Source: a virus (lineage: Duplodnaviria; Caudoviricetes). Taken from it: a DNA stretch of 64,000 nt. The stretch covers positions 1,747 to 65,746 of IMG/VR virus record IMGVR_UViG_3300021958_011649; one strand, 5' to 3'. The notes under the pieces are model-generated. The model did not search any database. It had not been told where the DNA came from and saw nothing but the letters and a program-made list of their open reading frames with translations. Shown piece by piece: positions 35,243 to 58,534 of this stretch. How positions within the stretch are numbered: position 1 is the first letter of the stretch; the number at the start of each line of letters is the position of its first letter. A program made the position numbers and the translations under genes.

Positions 35243-35938
35243 ATGAATAAAAATAATCCCCATTCCCATTCCTCAATTAAATTATTAAACGAAATAATTG
35301 AAGATTTACAAGTAATTTTTGAAAAAAATAAAAGAAAAAAGAAAGCAGAAGACAAACCTCATCCTACTCAGTACGGTGCCCCTCAGGGTAGTAAAAGAGA
35401 TAAAGCACTCGATAGATGCAAAAAACTTTACAAAGATGGTAAGACAAAAGAAGCAGCAAAGTGCAGAGATAACATGGAAAAGAAAGAAAGAGAAAAAAAG
35501 AGTTTTAAAAATACACCTAGGCCCGATACTAAGAAAAATGAATCTAAACTAGATCAGGATACATTAAGAGAATTGCTAGAAGAGATTTTAGAATTTGAAA
35601 AATTAGAATATGCACTTGGTGAAGTTGAAAACTTAGAGCAAGATGGTTTAGAATTGATTGATGAAAAAAAGAAACGCAAAAAGAAGAAAAAGAAAAAAGC
35701 TTCTAAAGGATTATCAGCTGCAGTAAAAAAATCACTTGATAAAAAAGCAGATAAAAGATGCTTAACACGTGGTTCTGTTTATTCAGAATTCAGAAAAGGT
35801 CTAGCTGCTTATCTCTCTTCAGGTTCTAGAAAAGGTATGACTGCTCATCAATGGGCACATGCAAGAGTTAACTCTGCAACTCCAAGCAAACCATGGGCAA
35901 CTGTTAAAAAGAGAAAAACGTGTCCGAAGAAGAAATAA
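35243..35938 (+). CDS. Lys-rich protein with DUF5824-like C-terminus
   Basis: RKGLAAYLSSGSR..TAHQWAHARVNS; internal leader-like NESKLDQDTLRELLEE. Confidence 0.6.
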   Translation: MNKNNPHSHSSIKLLNEIIEDLQVIFEKNKRKKKAEDKPHPTQYGAPQGSKRDKALDRCKKLYKDGKTKEAAKCRDNMEKKEREKKSFKNTPRPDTKKNESKLDQDTLRELLEEILEFEKLEYALGEVENLEQDGLELIDEKKKRKKKKKKKASKGLSAAVKKSLDKKADKRCLTRGSVYSEFRKGLAAYLSSGSRKGMTAHQWAHARVNSATPSKPWATVKKRKTCPKKK

Positions 35939-36294
35939 GAAAACTTATTAGAACTATTCTTCTAGAAAAAGGTGATCCTAAAGTAGGGACAGGTAAAAAA
36001 CCAAAAGGTTCAGGCAGAAGACTCTATACAGATGAAAATCCTAAAGATACAGTTCCCGTAAAGTTCAGAACAAAAGAAGATATACAAGATACATTTTCTT
36101 CAAAAGCTTTTAAGTCCAAAGACCACAAAAGACAATCACAAATTATTAATCTAGTACATCAACGTGTCAGAGCTGCATATAAAAACGCAAAAGACCCAGA
36201 TACCAAAAAAAGACTTAAAAGAGCACTTGATTACGCAGAAAAAAGAAAAGAATCAAGCAAGAAAAAAACAGAAAGAATGAGGAAGAAGAAATGA
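35920..36294 (+). CDS. Basic hypothetical protein with N-terminal leader
   Basis: MSEEEIRKLIRTILLE leader; GTGKKPKGSGRRLYTDENPKDTV. Confidence 0.7.
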   Translation: MSEEEIRKLIRTILLEKGDPKVGTGKKPKGSGRRLYTDENPKDTVPVKFRTKEDIQDTFSSKAFKSKDHKRQSQIINLVHQRVRAAYKNAKDPDTKKRLKRALDYAEKRKESSKKKTERMRKKK

Positions 36295-36929
36295 AAATAA
36301 CAAGAAAACAATTAAAAAAACTAATAGAATCCTTTCTTCAAGAAAAAATCTCAACAAAAACTATGAAGTGTCCAAAGTGCGGTACAATAAACGATTCTGG
36401 CATTGATAAGTGTTCAAATTGTGGTCATGATTATGATAAACCCTTTCAAGGAAGAGTTTGGAAAGAAGTTACAAAAGAAAATAAGAAATTAAAAATCTTC
36501 GAAAAAGTAAATAAATTCCTGTGTCCAGAACCAACAAAAAGTGTCGAACTTAACACCCTAAATAGAGATAAGGCCATCAGAGAAGATTTTATCAAATACG
36601 GCCCGCTTAATATTGAAGAGCCAGGTAACTATTGGAAAGAAATAGCAGAAAAATGGAACACAACTGAAAAAGCAGCAAAAAAGTCTCTTTGCGGTAATTG
36701 TGTTGCTTTTGACATAAGTCCACAAATGGAACAGTGCATGCCTGGTGACATTGAAGTAGACGATGATGGTGGTCGACTTGGATACTGTTGGATGCATCAC
36801 TTTAAATGTCATAGTTTAAGAACTTGTAACACTTGGGCAAAGGGTGGACCAATACAAACCGACGAAGTATCAAATACTTGGTTTGAGAAAAACTCTGAAG
36901 CAGCTCTTAAAAAAGACCCTATCGAATAG
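36291..36929 (+). CDS. Leader-bearing Cys-rich protein (zinc ribbon plus Cys-rich domain)
   Basis: MKITRKQLKKLIESFLQE; CPKC..CSNC; CGNC..YCWMHHFKC..C..WAKGGP. Confidence 0.75.
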   Translation: MKITRKQLKKLIESFLQEKISTKTMKCPKCGTINDSGIDKCSNCGHDYDKPFQGRVWKEVTKENKKLKIFEKVNKFLCPEPTKSVELNTLNRDKAIREDFIKYGPLNIEEPGNYWKEIAEKWNTTEKAAKKSLCGNCVAFDISPQMEQCMPGDIEVDDDGGRLGYCWMHHFKCHSLRTCNTWAKGGPIQTDEVSNTWFEKNSEAALKKDPIE

Positions 36930-37632
36930 TACTAAGATCTTTATCTAATATTTCGTCTTTTGTATCAAAAAGATCCTGTAACAAATTTTGACTTCTGATT
37001 ACTTTATACATGATGTTTTCATCAGAAAGTTCACCTGCTTTTTCCAAACCAGACTGTCTCATCTTCTTTAATTTCTTTATCATTTTATCGAGTGGCCTAG
37101 TGATGTTTCTTTCCCTAGCTTGTTTCAATGCAACTCTGATTTCTTTTGAAAGTTTCTCTGATTTCTTGGTTACATTGTCAACATCAAGTTCATCTTTAAA
37201 CTTTTTTGGTTTAACTAGCCACTTGTTATCTTGAACGCTATACACACCAGTCGAGGCATGATCTTCATCGTGTTTCTGCGGGTATATTTCAACCTCAATG
37301 TCTTTTAGCTCGATATCATGTCTATTATTCCAGAATGTCTTTTTTGCACTAAAAAACTCTTCAACTAAATCAAGATTATCGTCAACTGTGCCAAAATCAA
37401 TTACTAGATGTAAATCAATATCACTAAAAGGTGTGTAATTGTAATTAGCGTAAGAGCCAGTCATTGTAATGTCTATTACATCAACAGGCACACCAAGATA
37501 CTCTAAAAACTCATCAGCTATTTTTAGTAAAGCTTCTCTAAATTCAGGAAGAATCTCTTCGTCTTCATTCCATATCTTCTGTGACAACTTGCTGTGCGGT
37601 AGGTGTGCTGTCACTGTTTTCTTCAAACTCAT
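36919..37632 (-). CDS. Pol-beta-superfamily nucleotidyltransferase
   Basis: TGSYANYNYT.FSDIDLH (GS + DxD), EVEIY, GVYS. Confidence 0.8.
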   Translation of the reverse strand: MSLKKTVTAHLPHSKLSQKIWNEDEEILPEFREALLKIADEFLEYLGVPVDVIDITMTGSYANYNYTPFSDIDLHLVIDFGTVDDNLDLVEEFFSAKKTFWNNRHDIELKDIEVEIYPQKHDEDHASTGVYSVQDNKWLVKPKKFKDELDVDNVTKKSEKLSKEIRVALKQARERNITRPLDKMIKKLKKMRQSGLEKAGELSDENIMYKVIRSQNLLQDLFDTKDEILDKDLSTIR

Positions 37633-38551
37633 TTCCGTATAACTCTCTATATTTTAGTAATGATAGTTCTTTTGCCTTAGCTTCGATTACTACATCGATG
37701 CATTGACCATAAGTATCAATCTTGTCATAAATATAATCAGAATGAGCATTCGGGTTAACCTTTTTTCCTTCTTTTTCAGCAGCAGACTCTGAATAATGAC
37801 ACGTAGGTCTTACATCGCCCCAAGTTTTAACTGCTAGAGCCAAAGCTTCTTCAGTTGTTTGTCCACCTGTGCAAAATTTATGATGATGAAAGTCAAAAAC
37901 AATCGGAACTCCTGTTTTGAGATGAACCAAATCATAAAGCATGTTAGTTGAATACAGATTACCTTTATCATCATTTTCCACAGTTAATCGAGATTTAACA
38001 GATTCAGGAAGTTTTTCAAAGTTTTGACACCATCTATCAGTTGCTTTTTGATGGTCACCATAAGCTGCACCAACATGAATGTTGATTTTTGACCAATGAT
38101 TTCTGGGCATACCCATTAAATCAAATATTTCACCATGTGTGGTCAAGTCTTTAAAAGAATTTTCAACTACATTTTGCTTTGGTGATGCAAGAATATTAAA
38201 AGGACCAGGGTGAAAAGAAAGTCGAATACCATTTTCTCTTGCATACTCACCTGCAATTGCCAAATGCTTGCAAATTTCTGTATAATCAGGTAAGTCTTTT
38301 AAATTATATTCAGATGCCCAAGGAAATAGGCAGGACGTCATTCTGAACACTTTAACATTGTTATTCTTATTCCATTTAAGGATAGGTAAAAGATCAGCTA
38401 CATTCAGCTTGGCAAGGTGTGACGCATACTTTACGCCCTTTTGCTGGAATGTCCTTTTAATCATGCCGCGATTGTTGGTTATTTTGTTTTTGACAGAATT
38501 TTGAATTGACAGGTTGATGCATGCATAACCTAAATTGAGATTATTTTTCAC
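37565..38551 (-). CDS. uvsE: UV-damage endonuclease
   Basis: LGYACIN, FRMTS, RLSFHPGPF, INIHVG, RLTVENDD, FDFHHH, HYSES, AHSDY, IEAKAKE. Confidence 0.93.
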   Translation of the reverse strand: MKNNLNLGYACINLSIQNSVKNKITNNRGMIKRTFQQKGVKYASHLAKLNVADLLPILKWNKNNNVKVFRMTSCLFPWASEYNLKDLPDYTEICKHLAIAGEYARENGIRLSFHPGPFNILASPKQNVVENSFKDLTTHGEIFDLMGMPRNHWSKINIHVGAAYGDHQKATDRWCQNFEKLPESVKSRLTVENDDKGNLYSTNMLYDLVHLKTGVPIVFDFHHHKFCTGGQTTEEALALAVKTWGDVRPTCHYSESAAEKEGKKVNPNAHSDYIYDKIDTYGQCIDVVIEAKAKELSLLKYRELYGNEFEENSDSTPTAQQVVTEDME

Positions 38552-38593
38552 AATTGTTACCTTTAGAGAATAAGTAAATTTAGGGGAACTAAA

Positions 38594-39442
38594 ATGATTA
38601 GATTAGTCAAAATAATTCGGGGGGTTGCTGTGTTCTTTTTTATTATATTCTTTTGTTTTTTAAGTTGCACGCGTATCAGTAAAGTTGAAGTTTACAATAA
38701 TCACTCAAATAAAATGGAAAGGACACTAGCTAATCACTATTCGTCACCTTTTCCAAATGAAAACTTTGTGCATCTTAAAAAATATTTACTTTTAGATGAT
38801 GAAGGTTTTATCTGCAGTGATTCTGACAAATTATCAGAATGCGGTCAAAACGAAGCACTAGTATATACTTCAGCATCAGGAGGAGTTGTAAAGAGAACTA
38901 AAGATTCAATAAAGATTCTCACAGCTGCTCACTGGTGTGTTGAAGGTGAAAACGATTCAGAAACAATAAGAAACACCATTGAAGGTTCACTTTTGGAAGA
39001 AGGTGAAAAACCAATGTATTTTTTAACAGGTGACTTTTTTGGGAAAAGAGAAAAAGTAGAAATTTTAAGTGTTGATATGGAAAATGATCTATGCTTGCTA
39101 GAAATGAAATCTGAGTTCTCAAAAAGAGCTAAAAATATAAAAATAGCAAAAAAAGAGCCCACAATTGGTGAAAAAGTACATACCATTGCTGCACCTGAAG
39201 GTCTTAACGGTTTCAATCTAAGACTCCATTTCGAAGGGAGATATGCAGGTTGTACAAACGAAGTTGAAGGTTTTATGTGCTTATATTCTATTCCTGGTAC
39301 TTACGGAACTTCTGGAAGTTTAGTTTTAAACGAAAGAGGCGAGTTAGTAGGTGTAATTTCAGTTGCAATTATCTCTTTTAATGACGTCACAGGTGGTCCA
39401 CATCTTTATCAGATACAAAGTTTTCTAGATCAAAACCTATAA
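38594..39442 (+). CDS. Trypsin-like serine protease with lipoprotein-like signal
   Basis: ILTAAH, NDLCLL, GTSGS triad motifs; hydrophobic N-terminus ending FLSC. Confidence 0.85.
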   Translation: MIRLVKIIRGVAVFFFIIFFCFLSCTRISKVEVYNNHSNKMERTLANHYSSPFPNENFVHLKKYLLLDDEGFICSDSDKLSECGQNEALVYTSASGGVVKRTKDSIKILTAAHWCVEGENDSETIRNTIEGSLLEEGEKPMYFLTGDFFGKREKVEILSVDMENDLCLLEMKSEFSKRAKNIKIAKKEPTIGEKVHTIAAPEGLNGFNLRLHFEGRYAGCTNEVEGFMCLYSIPGTYGTSGSLVLNERGELVGVISVAIISFNDVTGGPHLYQIQSFLDQNL

Positions 39443-39465
39443 AGCCAAATAATTATTAACATTAT

Positions 39466-39473: not shown

Positions 39474-39484
39474 AAGGCTTTAAA

Positions 39485-40794: not shown

Positions 40795-40796
40795 GA

Positions 40797-42479
40797 CTAA
40801 ACCTTTCTAGAAAGTCTTTTAATCAAAGCTTTAAGTTCTACACCTTCATTTAGTGTTGAGTAATCACCCGCAGGAATTGTAACGTCAATGGTTCCACGTG
40901 TTTTTCTTCTACCTGTAATCATTTTTCTAACTTGTGCTGAAAGACCTTTCTCATCAATACCATCCCAGTTAGACCTAAAATATTGAACTCTTCCACGAGG
41001 CCCAGTGTTAATTTTAATTGAATATTCGCTTGGAATCTTTTTAGAAGCTGGAAGTGTATCAACAATTACCTGCTGAAACTCTGACTTAAACTCTTCAATG
41101 TTTTTATTATCACTCAGAGGTCCTGTTATGTTAACTCTAATATCACTTACATTTTTTGGAGCTAGTTGTTGAGTTGCTCTTCTCGCTCTTTCTTGAGCAC
41201 CTTTTCTAGAAATACCCCCAGCTCTATTTCCGCCTCTTGAGCCGCCTCCTGTTGCAGGACAATTGTCTTTTTGGTCTTCTGTTCTAGCGTCAGGAAACTT
41301 TTCGTCAAGAATTCTTGTTGCTCTTGCGTTGTTGCCCAAAGACTTAAAAGCACCAAGTGGAGCATCTGCTTTCTTTCGTGTTAACCAACAACCTGTATCT
41401 TCACTAACTTTATATTCCCATGGGTCTGTGTCTGATGTAGTGTAAATCTCAACTCTATCTTTAGCTTCCTGTCCTTCACCTTCTTCACCAAGAGCAGCTT
41501 CATCTGCTGCATCTTCTGCTCCAGCAACTGCCTTTTCAACTTCCTTAGCGACTTTCACTGAAGCCTCTTGATACTGACCCCACTCATCTTGTGTCATTTT
41601 GGTTCCAAAAATATCAATAAAAGCAACGTCCATTTTATCAGCTAAAGGAGCTTCAACATATTCTCCATAATCTGATGCATCAAGCTCTTCATTGAAAACA
41701 TTCAATAAATGTGAATCCATAAACCACTCTTTTTCGTACTTTTTCTGAAAAACATCTGAAACAAAAGAAACATCAAGAATTGTTGGAATTTCATTTAAAA
41801 CTTTTTGAATCTCTTCTTCATCAGTTCCCATCCCAAACAAACCTTTTCCTGACATAATATCAATTCCGCTACCCTTTGTTGCGTTGTATAATCTTTTTGC
41901 AAAAGCTTGAGCCTCTTGATTAGAAATGAGCTCCGGTTGAGTCTTCCATTTTGCTGCCAACTGAGCGTTTCCTTGTTCTTTAAAGTTTTTTGATATCTCC
42001 AAGCAAGTTTTCTTGTATTCTTGATAAAGAGAAGCATCAAGAGCTTTTTTAGAAACTTCTCCTCCATCAGCGTGACTTGCCAAAAAATAACCTGCTGTGG
42101 CTACACCCAAAGCAACAACGCCAAGAGCAATCCAACCCGGAGGACCAGCAAGTACGCCAAGCGCCTGACCCGCACCAGCAAGTGCAGCACCACCTGCACT
42201 ACTAGCTAAAGCTCCACCAGCTAAAGCTGCACCACCCGCAGATCCACCAACACTACCAATAGCTCCTGCAAGAGCCACGGGTGCTCCATACCCTGCTAAA
42301 CCAGCGATTGTACCGTACCCTGCTAAACCAGCAGCGCCAGTTCCAACACCGGCAGCAACACCACCTAAAATATCTTTTGTAGCAGTTCCAGCCGATCCTG
42401 GACCAGCTTCATTTAATTCTGCTTCTTGAATCAACTTCTTGCGAATCAACTTTCTAATTTCACTTTCTTTTATATACAT
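40797..42479 (-). CDS. Leader-bearing multidomain protein: Gly/Ala hydrophobic segment, annexin-like repeat, GCW domain
   Basis: AKRLYNATKG..GMGTDEEEIQKVL..F.KKY..LL..F.EEL; GCWLTRKK domain shared with 45533-46666. Confidence 0.7.
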   Translation of the reverse strand: MYIKESEIRKLIRKKLIQEAELNEAGPGSAGTATKDILGGVAAGVGTGAAGLAGYGTIAGLAGYGAPVALAGAIGSVGGSAGGAALAGGALASSAGGAALAGAGQALGVLAGPPGWIALGVVALGVATAGYFLASHADGGEVSKKALDASLYQEYKKTCLEISKNFKEQGNAQLAAKWKTQPELISNQEAQAFAKRLYNATKGSGIDIMSGKGLFGMGTDEEEIQKVLNEIPTILDVSFVSDVFQKKYEKEWFMDSHLLNVFNEELDASDYGEYVEAPLADKMDVAFIDIFGTKMTQDEWGQYQEASVKVAKEVEKAVAGAEDAADEAALGEEGEGQEAKDRVEIYTTSDTDPWEYKVSEDTGCWLTRKKADAPLGAFKSLGNNARATRILDEKFPDARTEDQKDNCPATGGGSRGGNRAGGISRKGAQERARRATQQLAPKNVSDIRVNITGPLSDNKNIEEFKSEFQQVIVDTLPASKKIPSEYSIKINTGPRGRVQYFRSNWDGIDEKGLSAQVRKMITGRRKTRGTIDVTIPAGDYSTLNEGVELKALIKRLSRKV

Positions 42480-43713: not shown

Positions 43714-44124
43714 TTACTCTCCGCCGCCTCCATCACCGCCGACATCGCCACCAATGTCAAATCCAAAATCTCCAAAATCACTATCATGATTATAATCGTT
43801 CCCACCATAGCCAAAATACCAACGAAGCTTCTTTGTTAATTCTTTTTTAGCTTTACTAGCCTTACTTTTTTTCTTTTTCTTTCGCTTTCGTTTTCTTTCA
43901 AGTATCGGTGTATCTTCCTCTTGAATACCATGTGATTCATGTGCTTCAGGAAGCATATCAGAATTTGCTACTTCTACTAAACTATCTGCAGGAATGTTGT
44001 GCTCAACTAATCCACCTTCCCACTCAACATCATAAAAATTTATGTTACCGTTATTATCTAAAGAGTGCCAAACAACTTCACCAATCTCATTTAAAGCAGA
44101 ACCCTTCCGCTTAACATGAGTCGC
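43714..44124 (-). other. In-frame continuation of the 44125-44775 ORF beyond its TGA
   Basis: After GHT-TGA the frame stays open (ATHVKRKGSALNEIGEVVWHSLDNNG...YDVEWEGG) and joins the 43714-43956 ORF. Confidence 0.75.
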
Positions 44125-44775
44125 TCACGTGTGGCCAATAATGTCTTCATGAGCATCAGTCTTGTTTGGGACTTGGTCAATACCATAATCATAATAAGCA
44201 TAAGAAGGTAACTTTTCCAATTCTTCTCTAATTAAATTTCTGATTGTTTTTAAAGTCAAAGATTCTTCAAGCCCACTTGTATCAATAACATCACCATTAT
44301 CATGAACTTTAATCGAAGGATCTTTTTCTGAGAGCTTCTCAATGTATTTATCGTCATCTTCAACGTCAGTGTCACCTTCTTCAGCGTCCCTCATTGATTG
44401 TGCCACGAGATCAGCACCAGCTGCACCACCTTCATCTTCTAATTTTTTCTTTGCTGCATCAACTTCAGTATCTGATATTTCTAATGATGCCTCTATTAAT
44501 GCTCTTAATTGTTTTCTTGTGATTTTTGATTCATTAAAACCACTTAATTGACGATTCAAACCTCCTAAATAAGGTACTAGCTCATCAAGAATGTCAACTT
44601 TTGTCAAGGGCTCATAAGAGTCAATTTCATCATCAATGCGGCCAACAGCCTTGTCAATAAGTCTTTCAACAGCGGGAAAAAATTGTCTTTTTAAATTAAT
44701 TCGTTTTACCTGACCATCAGACAATCCAACTTCTTCAATTAAAATATTCATTAATTGTCTTTTTGTTAGTTTCAT
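44125..44775 (-). CDS. Protein with three copies of the leader motif (polyprotein-like)
   Basis: MKLTKRQLMNILIEE; NE-SKITRKQLRALIE; EE-SLTLKTIRNLIREELE. Confidence 0.75.
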   Translation of the reverse strand: MKLTKRQLMNILIEEVGLSDGQVKRINLKRQFFPAVERLIDKAVGRIDDEIDSYEPLTKVDILDELVPYLGGLNRQLSGFNESKITRKQLRALIEASLEISDTEVDAAKKKLEDEGGAAGADLVAQSMRDAEEGDTDVEDDDKYIEKLSEKDPSIKVHDNGDVIDTSGLEESLTLKTIRNLIREELEKLPSYAYYDYGIDQVPNKTDAHEDIIGHT

Positions 44776-45532: not shown

Positions 45533-46666
45533 ATGAAAATTACAAAAAGCGAACTAAACAGGCTTATTGAGTCTTTTCTTTCAGAAGATTTGCTCACAGA
45601 AAAAGTTGCAACAAATATCAAAAACCAAATCGAAGAAATTGATAAATGTTTCACAAACCCTAGTGAAGTTCCAAAAACTAAAGAACAACTACAAAAAGAA
45701 AAAAATCCGTATGAATTGGTTAAGGGCGATTTGTTACTCGATAAAGAAGAGTTAAAAAGTAAAATTGCAGAATTCAAAGCAATTATAGATGACATTAGAA
45801 GAACTCCTGGCGGAGAAGGCGATAAAAAGAAAATGAAGTTGCTCGGAAGGGCAGAAAGATATGAAGAGCTTGAAGTTAAGCTTGAAATACTAAAGTTAGC
45901 TTTGAAACATGTCGAAGACAGTGAACAACAACAAGCAGCTACAAGACCACTTCGTCCAGCTGCAACAGACTATGATAAAATTTACGAGTCTGAAGATGAC
46001 ATATACCATTACAAAGTTGACAAAGATACGGGTTGCTGGATAACAAAAAAGAAGTCAAGCACAAAATGGTTGAAAATCAAAGGTAATCCAAAAATTAAAG
46101 ACTGGAAAAAAGTCATGGCTGCCCTTGATAAAAAATTCTCACAAGCTAGGTCTGAAGAAGACAAACAAAAATGTGATGCAGCTTCACCAGAAAAAAGAAA
46201 GGCAGGAGAAGGGCCTGAAAGAGGTGTTTCAAATATTGAAATCTATAACGCAATTAGAGATGGAAAAAGGGAATATGTTTATGTATCTGAGACAGACAAG
46301 AATGTTCCAGTATATGTGGTCAACCCTTGGGCTGTGGGTAGTGCAATCTTAGATGCAGCAACAAAAGGAGAAGCAATTTCTGCAGCAAGAGAATTTAAGG
46401 ATGAAGTAAATGAGGGTCTTGTTTTCATGGATAGATTGGGCAACGTATATTTCTATGGAGAAAATATGCAGTCAGAAAAGATTCCATATTTCAATCCCGT
46501 AGAAAAAGAAGTAAAATATTACTCAAATACAGGCGCAGCAGAACTTGGAGATAGCTTTTTTAGAAGTAATGCGGGACTAAATGCTTCAAGATTATTCAAT
46601 GACATTATCGGTTCAATGGGAACCGGAGATTTAGGAATGTTTTTACAAGCCAAATCAATAGGCTAA
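45533..46666 (+). CDS. Leader-bearing protein with GCW domain
   Basis: MKITKSELNRLIESFLSE; YHYKVDKDTGCWITKKK...LDKKF..AR.E..K..C; GGAG SD. Confidence 0.8.
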   Translation: MKITKSELNRLIESFLSEDLLTEKVATNIKNQIEEIDKCFTNPSEVPKTKEQLQKEKNPYELVKGDLLLDKEELKSKIAEFKAIIDDIRRTPGGEGDKKKMKLLGRAERYEELEVKLEILKLALKHVEDSEQQQAATRPLRPAATDYDKIYESEDDIYHYKVDKDTGCWITKKKSSTKWLKIKGNPKIKDWKKVMAALDKKFSQARSEEDKQKCDAASPEKRKAGEGPERGVSNIEIYNAIRDGKREYVYVSETDKNVPVYVVNPWAVGSAILDAATKGEAISAAREFKDEVNEGLVFMDRLGNVYFYGENMQSEKIPYFNPVEKEVKYYSNTGAAELGDSFFRSNAGLNASRLFNDIIGSMGTGDLGMFLQAKSIG

Positions 46667-48313: not shown

Positions 48314-48877
48314 CTAAGACATCTTAAATTTTCTTAAAGCAACCAGTGCATCTATCACAGGTGCCAAAGGCTCACCCTTTTCATCTAGCTTTCCATATAT
48401 CTTGCCAGACCATTCCTGTGGCACCAACTGACCATATCTTCGATATCCTGCCCTGGGATCTTCACAATCTGCAGGTATATCCCATGTCACTATATCAGAT
48501 CTAGACTTAATATAATATTCCCACACGCGTTGGGCATCAGCTGACACAGACTTACGATCTGAGGTTAGCCCGTGCTTACCAGAAAGCTCGATTGCAATAT
48601 CATATAATAACGGACCATAACCACCACGAGAATAAGATTTCTTAACCTCGTAAGCGCCACAACCATTGTTAAATTCAGCTTCAACAGCTCCAACAGCACG
48701 ATCACGAGCAACAAAGCCAGGCGGCGGATTATCCCAAGAAATACTATGCATCAATTCAATCTTATACCTTCTACCCGGGCCAAATGACACACTCACGTAG
48801 AAATCATCACCTAAATCTGACGGCATCTTCATTGCCTCAGAAATTATACTGCGTAATTTTCTTCTTGTGATTCTCAT
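48314..48877 (-). CDS. Leader-bearing GNAT-like protein
   Basis: MRITRRKLRSIISE; GYGPLLYDIAIE..SDR..S.DA..VW; paralogue of 57935-58534. Confidence 0.55.
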   Translation of the reverse strand: MRITRRKLRSIISEAMKMPSDLGDDFYVSVSFGPGRRYKIELMHSISWDNPPPGFVARDRAVGAVEAEFNNGCGAYEVKKSYSRGGYGPLLYDIAIELSGKHGLTSDRKSVSADAQRVWEYYIKSRSDIVTWDIPADCEDPRAGYRRYGQLVPQEWSGKIYGKLDEKGEPLAPVIDALVALRKFKMS

Positions 48878-49437: not shown

Positions 49438-50043
49438 CTATTGTTCTCCACTTAAAGAAAAAGAAACAACCACACCATAATCTGTTTCTTCTGTTTCAAC
49501 ACTTAGCCCTAAGTCGGGCCTATCTCTCGACAAACCATCTAAGATACTCTTATATATTCTCGCACGAGTAAATCTAACTCTTCCATCATTACCTAAATTT
49601 GGAACAGGAAAAATAACAAAGTTTCTAATCGAACTCAAATCATCACTTAGTGTCGGCAGTTTATTATCAATAAAATTTTCAACAATTTTAATAACTGAAG
49701 AAAATACTCGCATATCAAACTTATTTGTCTCATGCTCAAAACTTTTAGCACCCTCAACATTAAAATCTATCACCCACTCTCTACTCAAATTCTTAATCTC
49801 AACAATATACCGCAAGCCATCACTTGTTGTAAATGTGTATTTAAAAGATTCAACATTCGAAACAGGTACTTCTTTTTTTCCGACAATTTTTTCATATGAT
49901 CTTTTTAAAAATCCAGACTCTGGAGTCTGTTCAGGCGCAATATCTTCTAGTTCTTCAGAATCATAAGGTTCAGAAGTAAACTTAATCTCATTTAATAAAG
50001 CTAATCTAATTAATTTTCTTATTCTATTTTTTGTTATCTTCAT
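49438..50043 (-). CDS. Leader-bearing hypothetical protein, paralogue of 55313-55867
   Basis: MKITKNRIRKLIRLALLNE; Y.F.T....Y.V..W...F...T..FDM.V...VI.IV..F..N.LP..RAR.Y..IL. Confidence 0.75.
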   Translation of the reverse strand: MKITKNRIRKLIRLALLNEIKFTSEPYDSEELEDIAPEQTPESGFLKRSYEKIVGKKEVPVSNVESFKYTFTTSDGLRYIVEIKNLSREWVIDFNVEGAKSFEHETNKFDMRVFSSVIKIVENFIDNKLPTLSDDLSSIRNFVIFPVPNLGNDGRVRFTRARIYKSILDGLSRDRPDLGLSVETEETDYGVVVSFSLSGEQ

Positions 50044-51002
50044 TATCCAATTCCATACTCACCATCTTTATCAAAAAGTGAGATATCAATTAACTTAAAA
50101 CCTTCACCATTGAGATCTGTCCCTATGTTACCCGGTACTATTTCATTATAATCAAAGAAATAACCAGAGTTTTCCAAAAGTTTAGCTAATCTATTAAACT
50201 TTACAATGTTAATATCTTTTGAAAAAATCTCTCTAAGTTTGCTTAAGACATCTCTTTCAAGAATTTCACTCTTCTGTTCAAAGGTTAAGCCTTTTTCATC
50301 CCATATTTTTAATCCTGCTAATCTTTCAAATAAAGTTCCCGATTGAAGATTGTTTCCCCTAATAGCAGAATGAAACAAAATCTGCAACCATATGTCTTCG
50401 TTGCTTAGATTCATTCTTTTTTTGTCATGTTCAATGATTGCGTCACTAGCATTGCTGTATATTGGAGAAATTTTAAACCACAAGTTTAAAAAGTTATAAG
50501 CGTCTCCAGTTCCCGGAAAGACCTTTTTAATCTGTTCTCCCATTTCTTCCCACGTTGTAATAACATTTGCCTTCTCAATAACCAGCCACCGAGGCAAAGA
50601 CAACCTAGGAGACCCATCTGGTTCTCTCTCATATGCATAAACCTTTGGAAAAAACTCAGGAAAACGATTAAAAAAATCCAACTCATTCTGATTTGAAATC
50701 TCAGATTCTGCAGAATAATCAATACCTGCGTCGGGACTCGGGTCATCCATTCTATTTGATATCTTTAATATCAAATCATTACTACCAGCAATTTCATAAG
50801 CATCACGAAAACTTCCGCCACCAAATCGACGTCCTACATTTGCTTCGAGCCATGGCCTGTTTAAAACTTGCTCACCATTTTGAACAACATATAACATGTC
50901 AGGATTCTCAATTAATGCTGTAATACCTTTTCCAAAATATTTCTTTTCGGGTGCAGAATATTCCAAAATAAGTTTTCTTAACTGTCTTCTTGTAAGCTTC
51001 AT
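50043..51002 (-). CDS. Leader-bearing protein-kinase-like fold protein
   Basis: MKLTRRQLRKLILE; GGGSFRDAY, LILKIS, NQNE, WLVIEKA, EIVPGNIG, KLIDIS. Confidence 0.6.
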   Translation of the reverse strand: MKLTRRQLRKLILEYSAPEKKYFGKGITALIENPDMLYVVQNGEQVLNRPWLEANVGRRFGGGSFRDAYEIAGSNDLILKISNRMDDPSPDAGIDYSAESEISNQNELDFFNRFPEFFPKVYAYEREPDGSPRLSLPRWLVIEKANVITTWEEMGEQIKKVFPGTGDAYNFLNLWFKISPIYSNASDAIIEHDKKRMNLSNEDIWLQILFHSAIRGNNLQSGTLFERLAGLKIWDEKGLTFEQKSEILERDVLSKLREIFSKDINIVKFNRLAKLLENSGYFFDYNEIVPGNIGTDLNGEGFKLIDISLFDKDGEYGIG

Positions 51003-52183: not shown

Positions 52184-52206
52184 TATAAATAGGAAAAACT
52201 TTTAAA
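52184..52206. repeat. Intergenic ATAAATAGG plus inverted-repeat element, copy 1 (partial)
   Basis: tataaataggaaaaacttttaaa. Confidence 0.6.
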
Positions 52207-52426: not shown

Positions 52427-54160
52427 TTAAACTCTAACAAACATCTCAGCAGGCATTGAAACATAAGCTATTTCATCAGCATTCATCTTTCCAACTCTAG
52501 CTAGATAATACTGCCAGTTTGTTAAACCATCTAAGTTTCTTGAACCACCACTAATAATCTTCTCAATGTCTGACTTTCTATAAACATATTCACCTAACTC
52601 ATCGCCAGACCTTCCAACAAGCTTTCCAGAATCTGATAAAAGATCAGATGCCATTCGAATGTTCTTAGCATCGATTAGTTCTTTTGCGACGTTATCACCA
52701 CCTACAAGAACAGTTAACATTAATTTATCAATAGCGTGTACAATTTCATGCTCCATTGTTTCTTGAATATTTTTTTCCAAACCTTCTTTTGCAAATTGTG
52801 CATAATTTATAAAAACTGTTGGAGGATCTGTGTGTCTCATCATTCCTCTTGTTGCTTTACCCATCCCTTCAGCTGCTGCAGACTCTGCATCTGTTATAAT
52901 TTTAACTTTAATTTTTGACATTTTTTGAAGTAATGCATCTGTTAATATTTCTATATCCCTAGGTTGAACAGCTTTTCTATTTGATTCTAAAACTCCAGAA
53001 TAATATTTCTTAAACAACTCTTGTGGGTTTGAATTTCCCATCACCTCAGACATTTTAATAAACTCTGTTCTAAATTCTTTAAAACTTTTAAAAACAATAT
53101 CTTTCCCAGCTTCTGGATGCTTAAAGACTTTACCAACCAAGTCTTGCGGTCTTGCGTATTGCTTTGGAAGCTTTTCAGCTAACTCTTTTGACCATCTTAA
53201 GCAAACATTTCTTAACTGTCCAGTTGTAACTTCTTGAATAACCTTTGCAGAAGTTCTCTTCACAACAGCTTTTCCAAAATCATCAATTTCACTGTCAACT
53301 GCTTTACCAACAACTGTCATGTTTTCTACAATTTCATCAACGTATTTTTTTGTCTCTCCAAGCCTAGCAATAATTGTTTTCGCTTCTACATCTGTCAATG
53401 CTGATATTTGAGCAATTCTATCTTTTGAAGTAAGCTTGCTCCAGGAATTAGCAAACCATTGCTTGATTTCACTCATTTGAGTCCTGCTTAAAACACGACC
53501 TCTATCTTCAAGTGCCTGCTTTAAAGACTTTGCTACTCCTTTTGCGCCTTCTTTTCCTGCCTTCTTTACAGCTGCTCGAGCAAAAGCAGCACCAATACCA
53601 ATAGCGGGAACAGCGCAAATAAAACTAAAGGCTGCTATTAAATAATCAGGAGGATCCTTAATAGCAGCTACAACACCTGCACCTATATCAGCTGCATTTC
53701 CAATTCCCGGGATAGCTCCTAAAATACCACCAATCTCCACAGTCCAATCAGCAGCTGAAGCTTTACCAGTATCAAGCTTAACTGAAGAAAACTTAATACC
53801 TTTTGTCTGAACGGGAACTGCATAACTACTTTTCTTGTCAAACTTCAAAGCCTTTTGATTAAATTTATTTCCATGATTACTTAGACTATGCGAAGAGTTA
53901 ACAGCTAATAATTTTGCACCTTTCTTTATCAAGAATTGATGATCACTCTTGTTCGCTAAAATCATTACACTTTCTTTTCCCTGGTAATTAAAATAACCAT
54001 AAGCAATAAATTTTTTATCATCAATAGATACCGATTCTAAGCTATCAACCTTCGATGATAAAAAATCTTCTTTTAATAACTCTAATTCTTCAATCAAGAC
54101 TGATCTAACCAAACTCCTAATCTTACTTTCACTTAAAATCACAACATCAAACCTTGTCAT
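52427..54160 (-). CDS. Leader-bearing toxin-like protein: hydrophobic pre-toxin-TG-like segment plus zincin motif
   Basis: ILSESKIRSLVRSVLIEE (GTG start at 54142 likely); GAIPGIGNAAD..A..AA...DY..AAFS..CAVP.IG; EHEIVH ... PAEMFVR. Confidence 0.65.
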   Translation of the reverse strand: MTRFDVVILSESKIRSLVRSVLIEELELLKEDFLSSKVDSLESVSIDDKKFIAYGYFNYQGKESVMILANKSDHQFLIKKGAKLLAVNSSHSLSNHGNKFNQKALKFDKKSSYAVPVQTKGIKFSSVKLDTGKASAADWTVEIGGILGAIPGIGNAADIGAGVVAAIKDPPDYLIAAFSFICAVPAIGIGAAFARAAVKKAGKEGAKGVAKSLKQALEDRGRVLSRTQMSEIKQWFANSWSKLTSKDRIAQISALTDVEAKTIIARLGETKKYVDEIVENMTVVGKAVDSEIDDFGKAVVKRTSAKVIQEVTTGQLRNVCLRWSKELAEKLPKQYARPQDLVGKVFKHPEAGKDIVFKSFKEFRTEFIKMSEVMGNSNPQELFKKYYSGVLESNRKAVQPRDIEILTDALLQKMSKIKVKIITDAESAAAEGMGKATRGMMRHTDPPTVFINYAQFAKEGLEKNIQETMEHEIVHAIDKLMLTVLVGGDNVAKELIDAKNIRMASDLLSDSGKLVGRSGDELGEYVYRKSDIEKIISGGSRNLDGLTNWQYYLARVGKMNADEIAYVSMPAEMFVRV

Positions 54161-54173: not shown

Positions 54174-54214
54174 ATAAATAGGAAAAACTTTTAAAAAGTT
54201 TCAGGAAATTTTTC
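54174..54214. repeat. Intergenic ATAAATAGG plus inverted-repeat element, copy 2
   Basis: ataaataggaaaaacttttaaaaagtttcaggaaatttttc. Confidence 0.7.
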
Positions 54215-55247
54215 ATTCCTCTTTTTTACTTTGCGCATCCAACACTTTCAAAAACGCAACCAAATCAGACACTTGCTCATCATTAAACTCTCGACCCAAC
54301 TGCAACCTTCCCATCAATCGCACAGCCTCTTCCAATGTCTCAACACGACCATCATGAAACCAAGGTCCAGTCAAGCCAACATTTCTCAAACTCGGAACCT
54401 TAAAAACCTCCTGATCGCTCACCTGCCCAGTCACACCATAACGTCCCAAATCTACATGTGTCTCATCACCATCCGGACGATAAGGCGCAACAACTCCTAA
54501 CTTCTGAAAACTACGACCACCAAAAAGCGGACCAGAATGACAACCTACACATCCATAACTAACAAAACTATCTAACCCTCTTGCCTCTTGCTCACTCAAA
54601 ACATCATCACCACGCATCCAATCATCAAAACGATCAGAGGTCACCAACGTGCTCTCATATAAAGCAATAGCATCAGCAACGTTGTTAAAAGTCAAACCAT
54701 CTTCATATAACTTTCCAAAAGCAATCTCATAACGCTTATCAAGACTCAAAACTTTAACAACAGCAGATTCACTCGGCATTCCCATCTCACCTGCAGCCAA
54801 AATCGGACCCTTCGCTTGCTCAGCCAAATCAGGAGCTCGACCATCCCAAAACTGAGCCACATGTGACCAAGAATTAAATGTGCTCGGAGAATTACGCTCA
54901 ACTTCTCTACCTAACGCCCCCTTCGACACACGCAAACCATCAACACCCCAATTTTCAACAGGATGACATGATGCGCAGGACTGCGTCTGATTAACAGAAA
55001 GACGTTTGTCATGATACAGTTGGTTTCCTAATGAAACCTTTTCTAAAGTTGCGTCATTGCTGTCTAGCGATGCAACAGGATTAAATCCGAATAGACTCTT
55101 AGATAAATCACGTGCTTCCTGTTGTGATTCAGATAAATGCTGCTGCTCAAGTGCCTGCATCTCAGCAAGTTCTTGTGCAGCTTGTTGTTCAAGTTGCTCA
55201 CTATTATCACTCAAAGAAGAACAAGCAAATAAAATAGAAAATAACAT
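54213..55247 (-). CDS. ccp: Di-haem cytochrome c peroxidase (CcpA/MauG family), lipoprotein
   Basis: Two CxxCH (CASCH, CVGCH), RNSPS, QFWDGRA..L.EQA.GP, FKVPSLRNV, PWFHDG; lipobox LFAC. ATG after GAGG at 55247. Confidence 0.92.
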   Translation of the reverse strand: MLFSILFACSSLSDNSEQLEQQAAQELAEMQALEQQHLSESQQEARDLSKSLFGFNPVASLDSNDATLEKVSLGNQLYHDKRLSVNQTQSCASCHPVENWGVDGLRVSKGALGREVERNSPSTFNSWSHVAQFWDGRAPDLAEQAKGPILAAGEMGMPSESAVVKVLSLDKRYEIAFGKLYEDGLTFNNVADAIALYESTLVTSDRFDDWMRGDDVLSEQEARGLDSFVSYGCVGCHSGPLFGGRSFQKLGVVAPYRPDGDETHVDLGRYGVTGQVSDQEVFKVPSLRNVGLTGPWFHDGRVETLEEAVRLMGRLQLGREFNDEQVSDLVAFLKVLDAQSKKEE

Positions 55248-55312
55248 GTGTATGACCTCGACTAAATATAAATCATACACTAATTCTATGATATTTTTAG
55301 GATGTTTTTTAC

Positions 55313-55867
55313 TTAAATAGTAAAACTTAAAGAGAAGTGTTCAGGTCCGTCTGATTTAATTTCAGCATCAATACCATAATTCTTTAAAATTCTCTGATAC
55401 ACCCTTGCGCGTCTAGCATCACCCTCAAAACCACTCACAGGGGTAATCTTAAAACTACGCTGACTTCTTGCTGACTCATTCTTCAAATGGGGCAACCGGT
55501 TTTCAACAAAATCACGAACAATAGCTATTACTGTACCATAAACCTTCATGTCAAAAGCACCAGTTAACTCGTCATAGCTACCATCAACTAAACGAAACAT
55601 AACATCCCAAGGTCGATGTTCTTTTTCAACTTTTTCACCCGTCTCTTCATCAACCACAAGTTCAGTTACCTTAGCAGCGTTATTAACACTAACCATGTAT
55701 TGCTCATCAGAATCTGTCTTAAAAGCATAACTTAACACTGCAAAAGGTACACCTGGGTTATCAATCTGGGCACCCATAAATCTAAAAGAATAAGGGTCAG
55801 ACTCAAACAACTCAAGAAGCAATGCTTCTCTTATGAGTTGTCTTAAGCGTGCTTGACTAAACTTCAT
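55313..55867 (-). CDS. Leader-bearing hypothetical protein, paralogue of 49438-50043
   Basis: MKFSQARLRQLIREALLLE; TGAFDMKVYGTVIAIV, RRARVYQRIL. Confidence 0.75.
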   Translation of the reverse strand: MKFSQARLRQLIREALLLELFESDPYSFRFMGAQIDNPGVPFAVLSYAFKTDSDEQYMVSVNNAAKVTELVVDEETGEKVEKEHRPWDVMFRLVDGSYDELTGAFDMKVYGTVIAIVRDFVENRLPHLKNESARSQRSFKITPVSGFEGDARRARVYQRILKNYGIDAEIKSDGPEHFSLSFTI

Positions 55868-56319
55868 TAAAGAAGTCCTTCGTCCCTTAGTCTCTGAATC
55901 TCATCAGCTATGTTCTTAAGTGCCATCGGGTATTTCTTGTCAAGTTCAATCAATCCCTTCTGAATAGCTGCAGAATATTCACGATCTGTTGCTTCTAATT
56001 CTTCTTGAGTATCAGCATCAAGATACTGTCTAATCGGATCCAAAACCATGGGAATCATCTTTGTCGATTTATATGTTCCATAATCAACCTCATAATCAGG
56101 ATAAATTTCCAAATGATCTGGTCTTAAATTAAAATTTTTGTCGTGATAAAGCAAATCAGTCCAAACATCCTCTCTAGACATTTTTTGATGCTGATCAGCT
56201 AAGTAACGCAAGATAAAACCAACATTCCAACGCTCAGGGCCTGAACCAGCTGAATCCAAAAACTCTTTTAAAACAGTCTCACGAATTAACGCGCGCAATT
56301 TACTTCTATTCAATTTCAT
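55867..56319 (-). CDS. Leader-bearing hypothetical protein
   Basis: Start reset to MKLNRSKLRALIRETVLKE after GGAG. Confidence 0.75.
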   Translation of the reverse strand: MKLNRSKLRALIRETVLKEFLDSAGSGPERWNVGFILRYLADQHQKMSREDVWTDLLYHDKNFNLRPDHLEIYPDYEVDYGTYKSTKMIPMVLDPIRQYLDADTQEELEATDREYSAAIQKGLIELDKKYPMALKNIADEIQRLRDEGLL

Positions 56320-56344
56320 AATCAACTCCAAACAAATTATAAAC

Positions 56345-56386
56345 ATAAATAGGGAAAGTTTTCAAAAGTTTCCGGAAAATTTTTGG
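56345..56386. repeat. Intergenic ATAAATAGG plus inverted-repeat element, copy 3
   Basis: ataaatagggaaagttttcaaaagtttccggaaaatttttgg. Confidence 0.7.
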
Positions 56387-56389
56387 CAC

Positions 56390-56419
56390 AAAAAACAAAC
56401 GCCGGGGTTTCTCCCGGCG
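56390..56419 (-). terminator. Intrinsic terminator
   Basis: Minus strand CGCCGGG-AGAAAC-CCCGGCG then TTTGTTTTTT. Confidence 0.75.
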
Positions 56420-56505
56420 CGAATTTTACTTTTTTCTTTTCAATTTTTAAAGATGACGAGCAGTACGAGCGCCCACGCTCCTCCTGCCCGCCTCTCACAC
56501 AATCC

Positions 56506-57249
56506 CTACCCCCGCGATGACCAATACGCGTCATTATTCGGATTACACTGATTCGCATGATTATCTAACTCAGCCTGTGAATACCCATCATTACCTCCTG
56601 ACCCTCCTCCACTAGAATAATCATCATCATCATAATCATAACCCCAATCGTCATCCTCGTAAGCGCCACTAGGTAAAATACCCTGCTTCTCACGCTTACG
56701 ATCATCATGAGCTAAACGATTTCGAATAGCCTCCATCATCATACCAGCCCAAATCGTGTATAACTTGTCACCCACAATCCAATACTCCATATAACTCCTG
56801 TCACCATTCTCACTCACATCATGAAAATTGCGCGCATTAGCATACCCAGGAACATCTAAATACAAAACATCATCCGCAGGATCTACACCCGCATGATAAG
56901 GCTTCACACCCGTAAACCACTTCCGAAACTTAACACGCTTACCATAAAGATTATTACCAATATAATAAGGTGAAACTCCAGAATCAAATCGAGGTGTCTT
57001 TAAAAATCGCTCGCCATAAACGCCATCATTATGCGCTGCAATCTCGTTGTGATGCGCCTCAATGTTTTGAATCAAGTCTTCAACGGATTCCCAACCTAAA
57101 TCATCAACTCGGGAAACAGCAACAAACGTGTTGTAATACTCGGAACTAAAGGCTACTTTCCCAGGCAATATCAAAACCCTCCACCAAAGCTCAATATCTT
57201 GAGCACTGAGAGGTGCACCGGTTTCTAATTTCTTTTCTAATGCCATCAT
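56506..57249 (-). CDS. Hypothetical protein ending in an NPNNDAYWSSRG motif
   Basis: 247-aa ORF with acidic/Gly linker and DNHANQCNPNNDAYWSSRG terminus. Confidence 0.7.
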   Translation of the reverse strand: MMALEKKLETGAPLSAQDIELWWRVLILPGKVAFSSEYYNTFVAVSRVDDLGWESVEDLIQNIEAHHNEIAAHNDGVYGERFLKTPRFDSGVSPYYIGNNLYGKRVKFRKWFTGVKPYHAGVDPADDVLYLDVPGYANARNFHDVSENGDRSYMEYWIVGDKLYTIWAGMMMEAIRNRLAHDDRKREKQGILPSGAYEDDDWGYDYDDDDYSSGGGSGGNDGYSQAELDNHANQCNPNNDAYWSSRG

Positions 57250-57251
57250 GT

Positions 57252-57725
57252 CTAAACTCCTGTCTCAATATGGCTAAAATGGGATTCAAGTATCTTGTCA
57301 ATCTCGATTTGCGCATTACTACGCGGATCTGTCAAACCGCTCACTACATCATACATGTACATGCGTAGATCAGGGGTCAACGCGCTATCAAGCATGGGAT
57401 TGGAAAGCTGCCCTCTTTCGATAGCATATGTTGTTTTCACAAAACAACTTCCACCGTGCTTTTCATGAATTGAAAGAATCTTTTCTGTGTCGTTTGCATA
57501 GGAAGCCAACGTCCACTCATTCAAAGCTCTCATGTTAACCATTGAATAAGCGGGATTCTGACCCCAGTAAACACGCAAGACACGTTGCGCGGCTTTGTCG
57601 CGGCGATGAAACTTCTCCATCTTAACGGCTAAACCCCATCGCCAATTAATACGATTTAGACTTGCGTCATAAAATAAAGCGGTGACCAAGTCACCGGGTT
57701 GGAACTCATAAACTTTTTTGACCAT
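57252..57725 (-). CDS. Hypothetical protein
   Basis: AAGGAGG SD; FQPGDLV start. Confidence 0.75.
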   Translation of the reverse strand: MVKKVYEFQPGDLVTALFYDASLNRINWRWGLAVKMEKFHRRDKAAQRVLRVYWGQNPAYSMVNMRALNEWTLASYANDTEKILSIHEKHGGSCFVKTTYAIERGQLSNPMLDSALTPDLRMYMYDVVSGLTDPRSNAQIEIDKILESHFSHIETGV

Positions 57726-57774
57726 CTCGGTCCTCCTTTCATAAAGTTTGATTTGTTTGTTATGTTATGTCCTT

Positions 57775-57818
57775 ACCTTTATCTTTATCTTTATCATTAT
57801 TATTATCTTTATCTTTAT
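57775..57818. repeat. (TTTATC)n-rich low-complexity tract in a 5' leader
   Basis: ctttatctttatctttatcattattattatctttatctttat. Confidence 0.6.
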
Positions 57819-57844
57819 TTGTTGTTATTGCTAACAACTATTAT

Positions 57845-57875
57845 AGTATACACTAGTGGGCGCAAGTTTGCACGC
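57845..57875 (-). promoter_or_regulatory. Repeated promoter, variant copy 1
   Basis: GCGTGCAAA-N16-TATACT, same spacing as the other copies. Confidence 0.55.
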
Positions 57876-57890
57876 CCAACAAGCACACAC

Positions 57891-57912
57891 AAAAAAAGCG
57901 CCGAACCGGCGC
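57891..57912 (-). terminator. Intrinsic terminator
   Basis: GCGCCG-GTT-CGGCGC then T7 on the minus strand. Confidence 0.75.
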
Positions 57913-57934
57913 GAATTTTTTGCTTTTTTAAAAA

Positions 57935-58534
57935 CTAAACAAACCGAATCTTATCACCCAAAGCCGCAATTATACTCGGAGCTCCCGCCGACTTAATAAA
58001 CTTCTTCTCAGTGAATTCCATACGACGGCCATCGCCAAAATCACGATATTCTTTACCTGTACAATTAACCAATGGCTCTGTAACCACATCAGCACGATTA
58101 TCTAAATAAAACGCCCAAACATTCGCAGCATCATCCGAAGTCGTCATCCGATCACTCATAATGCCACTATTACCAGCCAACTCCATCGCAATATCATACA
58201 TCATGGGTCCAGCACCATCAGGTGCTCCATCACGTAAATAAGCACGATGCACTTCCCATGTTCCACCACAATACTCCGGCTTCCAATATCTCATATCCAA
58301 CTCAGCCTTAAACACGCCCTTCTCATCAAGCATTCGAATCTTTAACAGCTCCATAGGCTCGTGCTCAGGAGGCCCACCGTCAGAATGAACAAACCAGTCA
58401 TGACCACCTGGTGTGTATGTGGTTTCCTCAACTGTGATATAGAAGCCTGGAGGCAAAAGCTCGGGCTGCAACATCGGCATCTCGTTAATCACACCCTCTA
58501 TCAATCTTCTCAACTGTAGTCTCGTTATCTTCAT
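57935..58534 (-). CDS. Leader-bearing GNAT-like protein
   Basis: MKITRLQLRRLIEGVINE; GAGPMMYDIAME..SDR..S.DA..VW; AAGGAGG SD. Confidence 0.55.
   Translation of the reverse strand: MKITRLQLRRLIEGVINEMPMLQPELLPPGFYITVEETTYTPGGHDWFVHSDGGPPEHEPMELLKIRMLDEKGVFKAELDMRYWKPEYCGGTWEVHRAYLRDGAPDGAGPMMYDIAMELAGNSGIMSDRMTTSDDAANVWAFYLDNRADVVTEPLVNCTGKEYRDFGDGRRMEFTEKKFIKSAGAPSIIAALGDKIRFV

Follow-up and report, generated by a model that had tools for sequence, protein, structure and literature searches.

In phage T4 the prohead protease gp21 cuts after L/I-X-E, and N-terminal propeptides of 10–19 residues direct internal proteins to the scaffolding core before being removed themselves (PMC9026906, PMC3012670). 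The internal proteins of T-even phages are diverse, having only this capsid targeting sequence (CTS) in common (PMC3012670, PMC9026906). Described herein is a leader of comparable design, which opens 16 open reading frames (ORFs) between 35.9 and 58.5 kb of a 64,000 nt stretch of viral DNA, hereafter the window (positions 1,747 to 65,746 of IMG/VR record IMGVR_UViG_3300021958_011649; Duplodnaviria, Caudoviricetes). The leader is of the type MKITRRQLRKLI-x-E, and the remainders of the proteins, termed bodies here, are otherwise mostly unrelated. Because the shared helix ends in a T4-type head protease site, these proteins are most probably packaged into the capsid and trimmed inside it; the leader itself is likely to be a capsid-targeting propeptide akin to the T4 CTS, though distinct in sequence and serving much more cargo, in an uncultured T4-type jumbo phage.

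The T4 CTS, which is found on IPI, IPII, IPIII and Alt and is removed by gp21, resembles the leader in being a short propeptide that starts at Met1 and closes with [L/I]-x-E. In both cases the mature parts are unrelated, the phage lineage has S77-, gp23- and gp20-type head proteins, and the tagged genes occupy a variable locus. The sequences differ, with MKTYQEFIAE in T4 as against MKITKRQLRRIIKEE in the clade to which the window belongs, or MKITRRQLRKLI-x-E in the window. The first site lies at residue 13–19 rather than at residue 10, as in T4 IPII and IPIII, and the net charge is +4 rather than −1. Whilst T4 has a handful of tagged genes, there are 16 in the window and ~30 per clade genome, and many acidic cargos, tandem leader–cargo cassettes and polyproteins further set the clade apart from T4. 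Direct homology of the two leaders was considered and is not accepted, the resemblance being too slight; this, together with the lack of any match to the leader profile in T4, indicates that they are not the same leader family, but analogues or very distant relatives.

Two relatives serve for comparison throughout: G002, which is a complete genome of 293,409 bp with terminal repeats, and G004. Polymorphic internal-protein loci of T-even phages (Repoila et al. 1994, as cited in PMC3012670) are alike in that gene content changes between relatives and every ORF keeps its targeting leader; set against them, the array here covers 23 kb, each genome has more than one array (in G004, the head module contains one of them), and the leader and the host range are other ones. 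The phiKZ-like giants (phiKZ, 201phi2-1 and SPN3US) contain dozens of head-internal proteins cut after Glu by a diverged gp21 homologue, with propeptides that hold redundant sites of the motif S/A/G-x-E and with no common N-terminal leader described (PMC9026906). A multitude of head-internal proteins, a three-residue motif with Glu and redundant sites in the propeptides are shared features, both head location and cleavage being predictions in the present case, whereas the clade has a shared leader and a capsid protein and protease much closer to those of T4. Processing of the phiKZ type was itself considered and set aside, as P3 of the conserved site is occupied by Ile or Leu. Polyvalent proteins of phages and conjugative elements, in which unrelated enzymatic modules are thought to be delivered with the DNA (PMC5512222), find a counterpart in a 923-residue protein of G002; modules in the clade are, by contrast, mostly separate genes with their own leader, and the fused ones have leader-like linkers with [LI]xE. 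As T4 and the T-even internal-protein loci already exemplify the principle, the present case is a variant rather than a new mechanism. New, as far as found, are the sequence and charge of the leader, the scale both per genome and across public data, the cassette and polyprotein architecture, and the phage clade. Only T4 and phiKZ work was found in the literature on targeting sequences in marine or jumbo T4-like phages, and no paper was found containing the leader peptide strings.

Sequence and distribution of the leader

The canonical leader, M-[KR]-[ILV]-[TS]-x-x-x-[LI]-[RK]-x-[LI]-[IV], begins at the initiator Met in 12 of the 16 tagged ORFs. The four others, named here by their start positions, are divergent or shifted by 2–6 residues: 35920 starts with GTG and its leader is shorter by two residues, that of 48266 is longer by three, 42479 is divergent, and 54160 falls into the canonical register if the GTG at 54142 is its start, an alternative already hinted at in the initial annotation. 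Every one of the 16 carries [LI]-x-E with the Glu at residue 13–19, which is the gp21-type cleavage motif that closes a propeptide (as defined in PMC9026906). The founding claim of that annotation, namely that 16 listed ORFs share an N-terminal leader closing in this motif, can therefore be upheld, as all 16 starts exist.

The leader is basic and amphipathic, alternates between charged and hydrophobic residues, and is followed by polar or acidic sequence. No hydrophobic run, and no hydrophobic core of the Sec or Tat type, was found within it, and a secretion signal of either type was rejected as a candidate; secreted neighbours (trypsin-like, matrixin-like and peroxidase) have ordinary hydrophobic N-termini and no leader. 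AlphaFold2 predictions for two tagged proteins (mean predicted local distance difference test, pLDDT, of 78 and 81) give a low-confidence helix for the leader, standing apart from the body.

Scanning with a profile of the N-termini, a check suggested alongside the initial annotation, was performed in six frames at ≥12 bits using all 16 leaders. This yielded 17 matches in the contig, 29 in G002 and 20 in G004; those of the window arise by construction, those of G002 and G004 are independent, and reversed-sequence controls of the three gave none. Nearly all matches in the two relatives begin at ATG, GTG or TTG. As to whether the leader might be just as frequent among metabolic genes, it begins none of the 36 large ORFs within positions 1–33 kb of the window, a region that codes for sugar/glycan enzymes, PhoH, PrkA, SpoVR and YeaH.

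Beyond these genomes, a degenerate DNA pattern covering leader residues 1–12 only, and leaving residue 14 unconstrained, identified at least 118 loci in IMG/VR, many of them tandem arrays on contigs of 140–293 kb. Among the matches listed, 95 % have Glu at residue 14, where [LI]xE ends in 158 of 165 leaders. Since this Glu is conserved despite being free to vary in the search, the leader can be said to end in the gp21 motif [L/I]-x-E. Conservation drops after residue 15, with a second Leu-x-Glu ending at residue 22 in 45 leaders of the same set. Across these 165 non-identical leaders from public viral contigs, synonymous codons vary freely at Ile3, Thr4, Leu8, Ile11 and Ile12 and the amino acids are kept, so that an RNA-level element is unlikely and the constraint appears to act on the peptide. 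A profile of 120 leaders retrieved 8,801 clusters (50 %-identity representatives) at E ≤0.001 from 1.84 billion proteins. The leader is itself not captured by Pfam or PHROGs, and neither a tagged protein nor a 22-residue leader consensus gave anything useful as a tblastn query against 50,697 phage records, although the low-complexity filter may hide matches.

The leader is also modular. Removal of the first 26 residues leaves 16 bodies that fall into 12 unrelated families with four paralogue pairs, so that the earlier statement that the rest of each protein differs is correct for the families but not for the paired members; the predicted folds of the two modelled bodies differ. Homologues of the body of 48314–48877 carry the full leader, one in another dialect, or a shortened one, whilst homologues of the kinase-like body (50043–51002) have one or two leaders. 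In both families the alignment of bodies begins directly after the leader Glu, which in the kinase-like family is invariant in nine homologues. At G002 286576–289347 (L143:6576–9347, plus strand), directly after a seven-gene tagged array, lies the 923-residue protein mentioned above, which consists of DUF192, PolyA_pol, GNAT-like and PAP2 modules joined by leader-like linkers ending in [LI]xE. It fuses modules that are separate and tagged in the window, its GNAT-like module being of the same family as 48314–48877. The best-scoring of the 8,801 clusters contain two or three leader–cargo cassettes in a single frame; in P0024, P0025, P0037, P0039 and P0047, all from public metagenomes, two to three complete cassettes are present and the internal leaders still begin with Met, which suggests that neighbouring cassette genes have been fused into polyproteins.

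Relatives, head genes and prohead protease

The parent record, of 65.7 kb, has a CheckV completeness of 18 %. The window is syntenic with a 237-kb contig; it is collinear with G004 204.6–235 kb over ~30 kb, with conserved genes at 56–84 % amino-acid identity, and, in inverted orientation, with G002 58–112 kb. Tagged ORFs number ~33 in G002, in three clusters, and ~30 in G004. The genes prkA, spoVR and yeaH are conserved at 57–84 % (window 30671–35150, G004 218.6–223.1 kb and G002 64.5–69.0 kb), always with a tagged array on one side and PhoH and a glycan cluster on the other. As the arrays adjoin yeaH in all three genomes with almost no cargo in common, position is kept whilst content turns over. 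The leader has dialects, with Arg5 and Leu11 in the window and G004, and Lys5 and Ile11 in G002; these track the phage lineage and not the cargo, which fits one common receptor per phage.

The lineage of these relatives is characterised by a gp21-type S77 protease, a gp23-type capsid protein and a gp20-type portal. All five of the large leader-bearing contigs examined first code for the capsid protein and the protease. Peptidase_S77 (T4 gp21-type) was detected in 19 of 44 leader-bearing records searched, including 4/4 that are ≥90 % complete and every record that is ≥62 % complete; the others are fragments of 2–58 %. The protease of G004 aligns to T4 gp21 (PDB 5JBL; E 8e-18), with His and Ser at two positions where the crystallised chain has Ala. 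Capsid proteins of the clade keep [LV]-x-E followed by Ala near residue 60, which is the cut position of T4 gp23. Between the protease and capsid genes lie very acidic scaffold candidates (net −51 and −47), that of G004 having 24 [LI]xE against 9.1 ± 2.6 in shuffles (~2.6-fold) and that of G002 having 19 such sites. The retained capsid site and the enrichment in the scaffold suggest the same protease specificity, which is thus probably conserved in the clade, and an acidic scaffold offers an electrostatic partner for a leader of +4.

In G004, the capsid gene is succeeded on its own strand by some nine genes that are tagged or leader-like, including a leader-tagged homologue of 50043–51002 and a homologue of 35920–36294, the body of which in the window is homologous to the C-terminus of a leader-tagged protein of 430 residues. 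In G002 and G004 alike, the N-terminus of a small conserved core protein encoded beside the protease is leader-like. Capsid genes of the gp23 type also occur in tandem pairs (G001 139.3–142.9 kb and G002 176.3–180.2 kb; L121, L122), the two products being ~630–640 residues long with near-identical N-termini, and one of the two may serve as a vertex protein, like T4 gp24.

Taken as a capsid-targeting propeptide, the leader would act as follows. Its basic (+4) amphipathic helix of ~14 residues would dock each protein onto the acidic scaffolding core during prohead assembly, whereupon the gp21-type (S77) prohead protease would cut after the Glu of the closing [L/I]-x-E. In some tagged proteins a second cut at [L/I]-x-E might follow ~5–8 residues on. 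Cleavage would free the mature protein inside the head, from where the cargo would probably exit along with the DNA when a host is infected.

Judged by the capsid protein, the cultured phages closest to the clade are Flavobacterium phage immuto (47 % identity) and Microcystis phage Mel-JY01. Immuto has an S77 protease and codes for one protein with a shortened leader and a DUF5661 domain (NC_055915 113188–113946; locus L156:6287–7045), as well as several more head-proximal ORFs with N-termini ending in [LI]xE, and, being cultured, is a possible experimental entry point. The clade also resembles the 'moraphages', which are aquatic, up to 307 kb in size, and have T4-like structural genes and predicted Bacteroidota hosts (PMC12619734); the study describing them, in which an N-terminal leader goes unmentioned, probably covers the same or a related clade. 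By analogy with these and with immuto, the phages considered here, which are aquatic, probably have hosts among the Bacteroidota. Proteins of the window occur on longer contigs as well, one of them of 84 kb.

Weighing of explanations

All computational predictions of the capsid-targeting reading that were tested came out as expected: the leader is confined to N-termini (and to polyprotein linkers), is absent from the metabolic genes, recurs in relatives, co-occurs with S77 and ends in the cutting motif, and in a close relative it marks genes directly behind that for the capsid protein. The proposal of the initial annotation, a different and longer targeting code that loads an arsenal into the head, is thereby partly supported, as regards the N-terminal position, the co-occurrence with S77 and the [LI]xE end, but the functional labels given to the cargo are weak.

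A number of observations weigh against this reading. The leader is basic and the T4 CTS slightly acidic, with just Met-Lys and a Thr shared with the N-termini of T4 ipI, ipII and ipIII (NC_000866). Cargo bodies are mostly acidic, whereas the internal proteins of T4 are basic and DNA-binding, and thirty-odd cargo species per genome is far above T4. Glu14 is laxer in the window (6/13) and in G004 (10/18), where the cut of this lineage may lie at residue 13 or 17–19 instead. Head genes and the S77 protease were not found on the contig, because this is an 18 %-complete fragment, and the link to the capsid consequently runs through the relatives; the head module of G002 has no canonical tagged gene. 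T4-type late promoters (TATAAATA) are not enriched and do not generally lie upstream of the tagged operons, and so do not point to late co-expression. Finally, it is by analogy with T4 that we infer packaging and virion retention, cleavage and ejection with the DNA, along with docking to the scaffold and any effector role.

Of the other explanations, an unlikely one that shares part of the mechanism is that the leader does target the prohead core, with the proteins being assembly or scaffold accessories, or filler, that are degraded, expelled or left behind rather than acting as effectors. There is precedent in the T4 core proteins gp22, gp67 and gp68, which are likewise cleaved at L/I-X-E and for the most part exit the head (PMC9026906), and the small core protein with its leader-like N-terminus, the modest size of many tagged proteins of G002 (70–130 residues) and the scaffold-like acidity of the window bodies point in the same direction. 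However, several bodies look like folded enzymes in the structural models, and complete turnover of cargo at a retained position is the behaviour of arms-race cargo and not of assembly factors. Moreover, tagged bodies show no enrichment of [LI]xE (observed/expected against shuffles of 0.93, compared with an enriched 1.17 in untagged proteins), unlike in the scaffold; this is weak support for exposure of the bodies to the protease.

The leader could, with equally little probability, be an intracellular tag unrelated to the capsid, serving in membrane or nucleic-acid binding, in oligomerisation, or as a recognition tag or degron, for example for PrkA (AAA+, Lon-like), YeaH or SpoVR. A basic, amphipathic helix would suit such a role, as would the array adjoining yeaH–spoVR–prkA in the window, G004 and G002, although this adjacency may be plain synteny. 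Left unexplained would be why the Glu of the closing [LI]xE is near-invariant, why the leader starts strictly at Met1, why polyprotein linkers are leader-like and why G004 has tagged genes in its head module, far from prkA; the lack of a Sec/Tat-type hydrophobic core also speaks against it. Very improbable is that the leader is no signal at all, but a remnant of common descent in fast-diverging paralogues or a 5′ RNA element for translation initiation, for whilst tandem arrays can grow by duplication, four paralogue pairs exist and the 5′ coding region of tagged genes is A-rich, the 12 body families have no detectable similarity and two differing predicted folds, codons vary under constant amino acids, 14 residues are fixed across 8,801 clusters with fully diverged bodies, and the leader recurs internally, where translation does not start.

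Extending the capsid-targeting reading to its full scale, namely that a single portable code of 14 residues loads ~30 proteins per genome and thousands of families overall, enzyme-like and polyprotein cargos among them, for delivery with the DNA throughout a widespread aquatic clade, has about an even chance of being right. If so, the leader would be a handle by which the injected proteome of these phages could be read straight from metagenomes, and could serve directly as a packaging tag where phages of Bacteroidota-type hosts are to deliver proteins. As a packaging code it would define by far the largest head-delivered protein set in the T4 lineage, listable from sequence, and with it thousands of candidate first-minute effectors (in anti-defence or host take-over) from aquatic phages that are abundant and uncultured, nearly all without a known family. 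The T4 CTS principle would then be old and general among gp21-bearing phages, with a tag co-evolving with the scaffold, and the leader could be tested as a means of bringing foreign proteins into these capsids.

Tagged genes and their surroundings

The coordinates of the tagged genes are collected below. No body has a Pfam or PHROG match at threshold, all Atlas matches of tagged bodies are below 0.9, and no relative of the kinase-like protein emerged when viral contigs were scanned with it. The functional labels of the initial annotation were accordingly only partly retained: kinase-like and GNAT-like are weak fold matches, M15 peptidase and zincin are leads. For 48314–48877 (mean pLDDT 78) the leader forms a low-confidence helix at residues 5–15 that stands off the body, and Foldseek matches are almost all GNAT enzymes, albeit weak ones (E 8e-3 or worse, ~1e-2; template modelling score ~0.4). 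In the model of 50043–51002 (mean pLDDT 81), residues 1–13 are below 50; the best Foldseek matches are to APH(2'') and RIO kinases (weak; E 1.9e-3), and the VIA-align Z of 5.1 lies inside the background range of the tool.

Tagged genes and internal leader copies in the window, with leader scores in bits and residues at which [LI]xE ends
Feature	Position	Strand	Leader	[LI]xE end	Body
Tagged gene, 124 aa	35920..36294	+	Divergent, short, GTG start; 15.3	16	Basic
Tagged gene, 212 aa	36291..36929	+	Canonical; 24.0	13, 18	Cys-rich; zinc-ribbon Pfam matches under cut-off
Tagged gene, 233 aa	40093..40794	-	Canonical; 23.8	19	Possible M15-type peptidase; M15/VanY link is an Atlas lead (0.84-0.86)
Tagged gene, 560 aa	40797..42479	-	Divergent; 15.4	19, 24	Gly/Ala-rich segment; paralogous segment common to 45533-46666; G004 homologue at syntenic place
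Tagged gene, 216 aa	44125..44775	-	N-terminal; 17.3	14	Putative polyprotein
Internal leader copy 1	44479..44529	-	In frame within 44125-44775, after Glu; 14.4	Ends [LI]xE	
Internal leader copy 2	44215..44268	-	In frame within 44125-44775, weaker; 9.3		
Tagged gene, 377 aa	45533..46666	+	Canonical; 20.7	13, 18, 23	Partial paralogue of 40797-42479
Tagged gene, 202 aa	47658..48266	-	Displaced three residues; 14.0	17	Very acidic (net -25)
Tagged gene, 187 aa	48314..48877	-	Canonical; 17.9	14	Weakly GNAT-like
Tagged gene, 181 aa	48890..49435	-	Canonical; 23.2	14	Very acidic (net -29)
Tagged gene, 201 aa	49438..50043	-	Canonical; 20.8	19	Paralogue of 55313-55867
Tagged gene, 319 aa	50043..51002	-	Canonical; 24.9	14	Weakly protein-kinase-like
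Tagged gene, 215 aa	51006..51653	-	Canonical; 25.4	13	Acidic
Tagged gene, 577 aa	52427..54160	-	Shifted six residues unless GTG 54142; 14.8	11, 24 (from ATG)	Contains HExxH; peptidase and LPD23 links are Atlas leads (0.80-0.87)
Tagged gene, 184 aa	55313..55867	-	Canonical; 22.8	14, 19	Paralogue of 49438-50043
Tagged gene, 150 aa	55867..56319	-	Canonical, ATG at 56319; 22.8	14, 19	
Tagged gene, 199 aa	57935..58534	-	Canonical; 22.4	13, 18	Paralogue of 48314-48877

The gene with three leaders (44125–44775) stops at a TGA, beyond which the same frame continues into an ORF at 43714–43956 (minus strand); this may reflect read-through, a recent nonsense change or a sequencing error. Interspersed within the interval are leaderless genes, comprising UvdE, trypsin-like, DUF192, matrixin-like (weak), HAD (weak) and di-haem peroxidase, which agrees with the earlier remark that secreted or host-type neighbours lack the leader.

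With regard to promoters, an exact TATAAATA lies at 35215–35222 (plus strand), 28 nt upstream of the ATG at 35243, which begins the first gene of a plus-strand unit running into the tagged genes 35920 and 36291; other such sites are not placed sensibly. A further element, CCTATTTAT, occurs on the minus strand at 52185–52193, 54174–54182, 56345–56353 and 58551–58559, in each case preceded by an A/T-rich, partly palindromic stretch (TTTCCGGAAA...TTGAAAAC). These copies lie 4–35 nt upstream of four minus-strand units that together contain 11 of the 16 tagged genes. In G002, CCTATTTAT is followed by TGGTATAAT (an extended −10), with two sites just upstream of the big tagged array. The element is probably a promoter, perhaps combined with a terminator.

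Following the last tagged gene, G+C content jumps from 35–40 % to ~50 % (58600–64000), and the ORFs of this region have no homologue in G002 or G004; it could be a foreign island, a different region of the genome or an assembly join.

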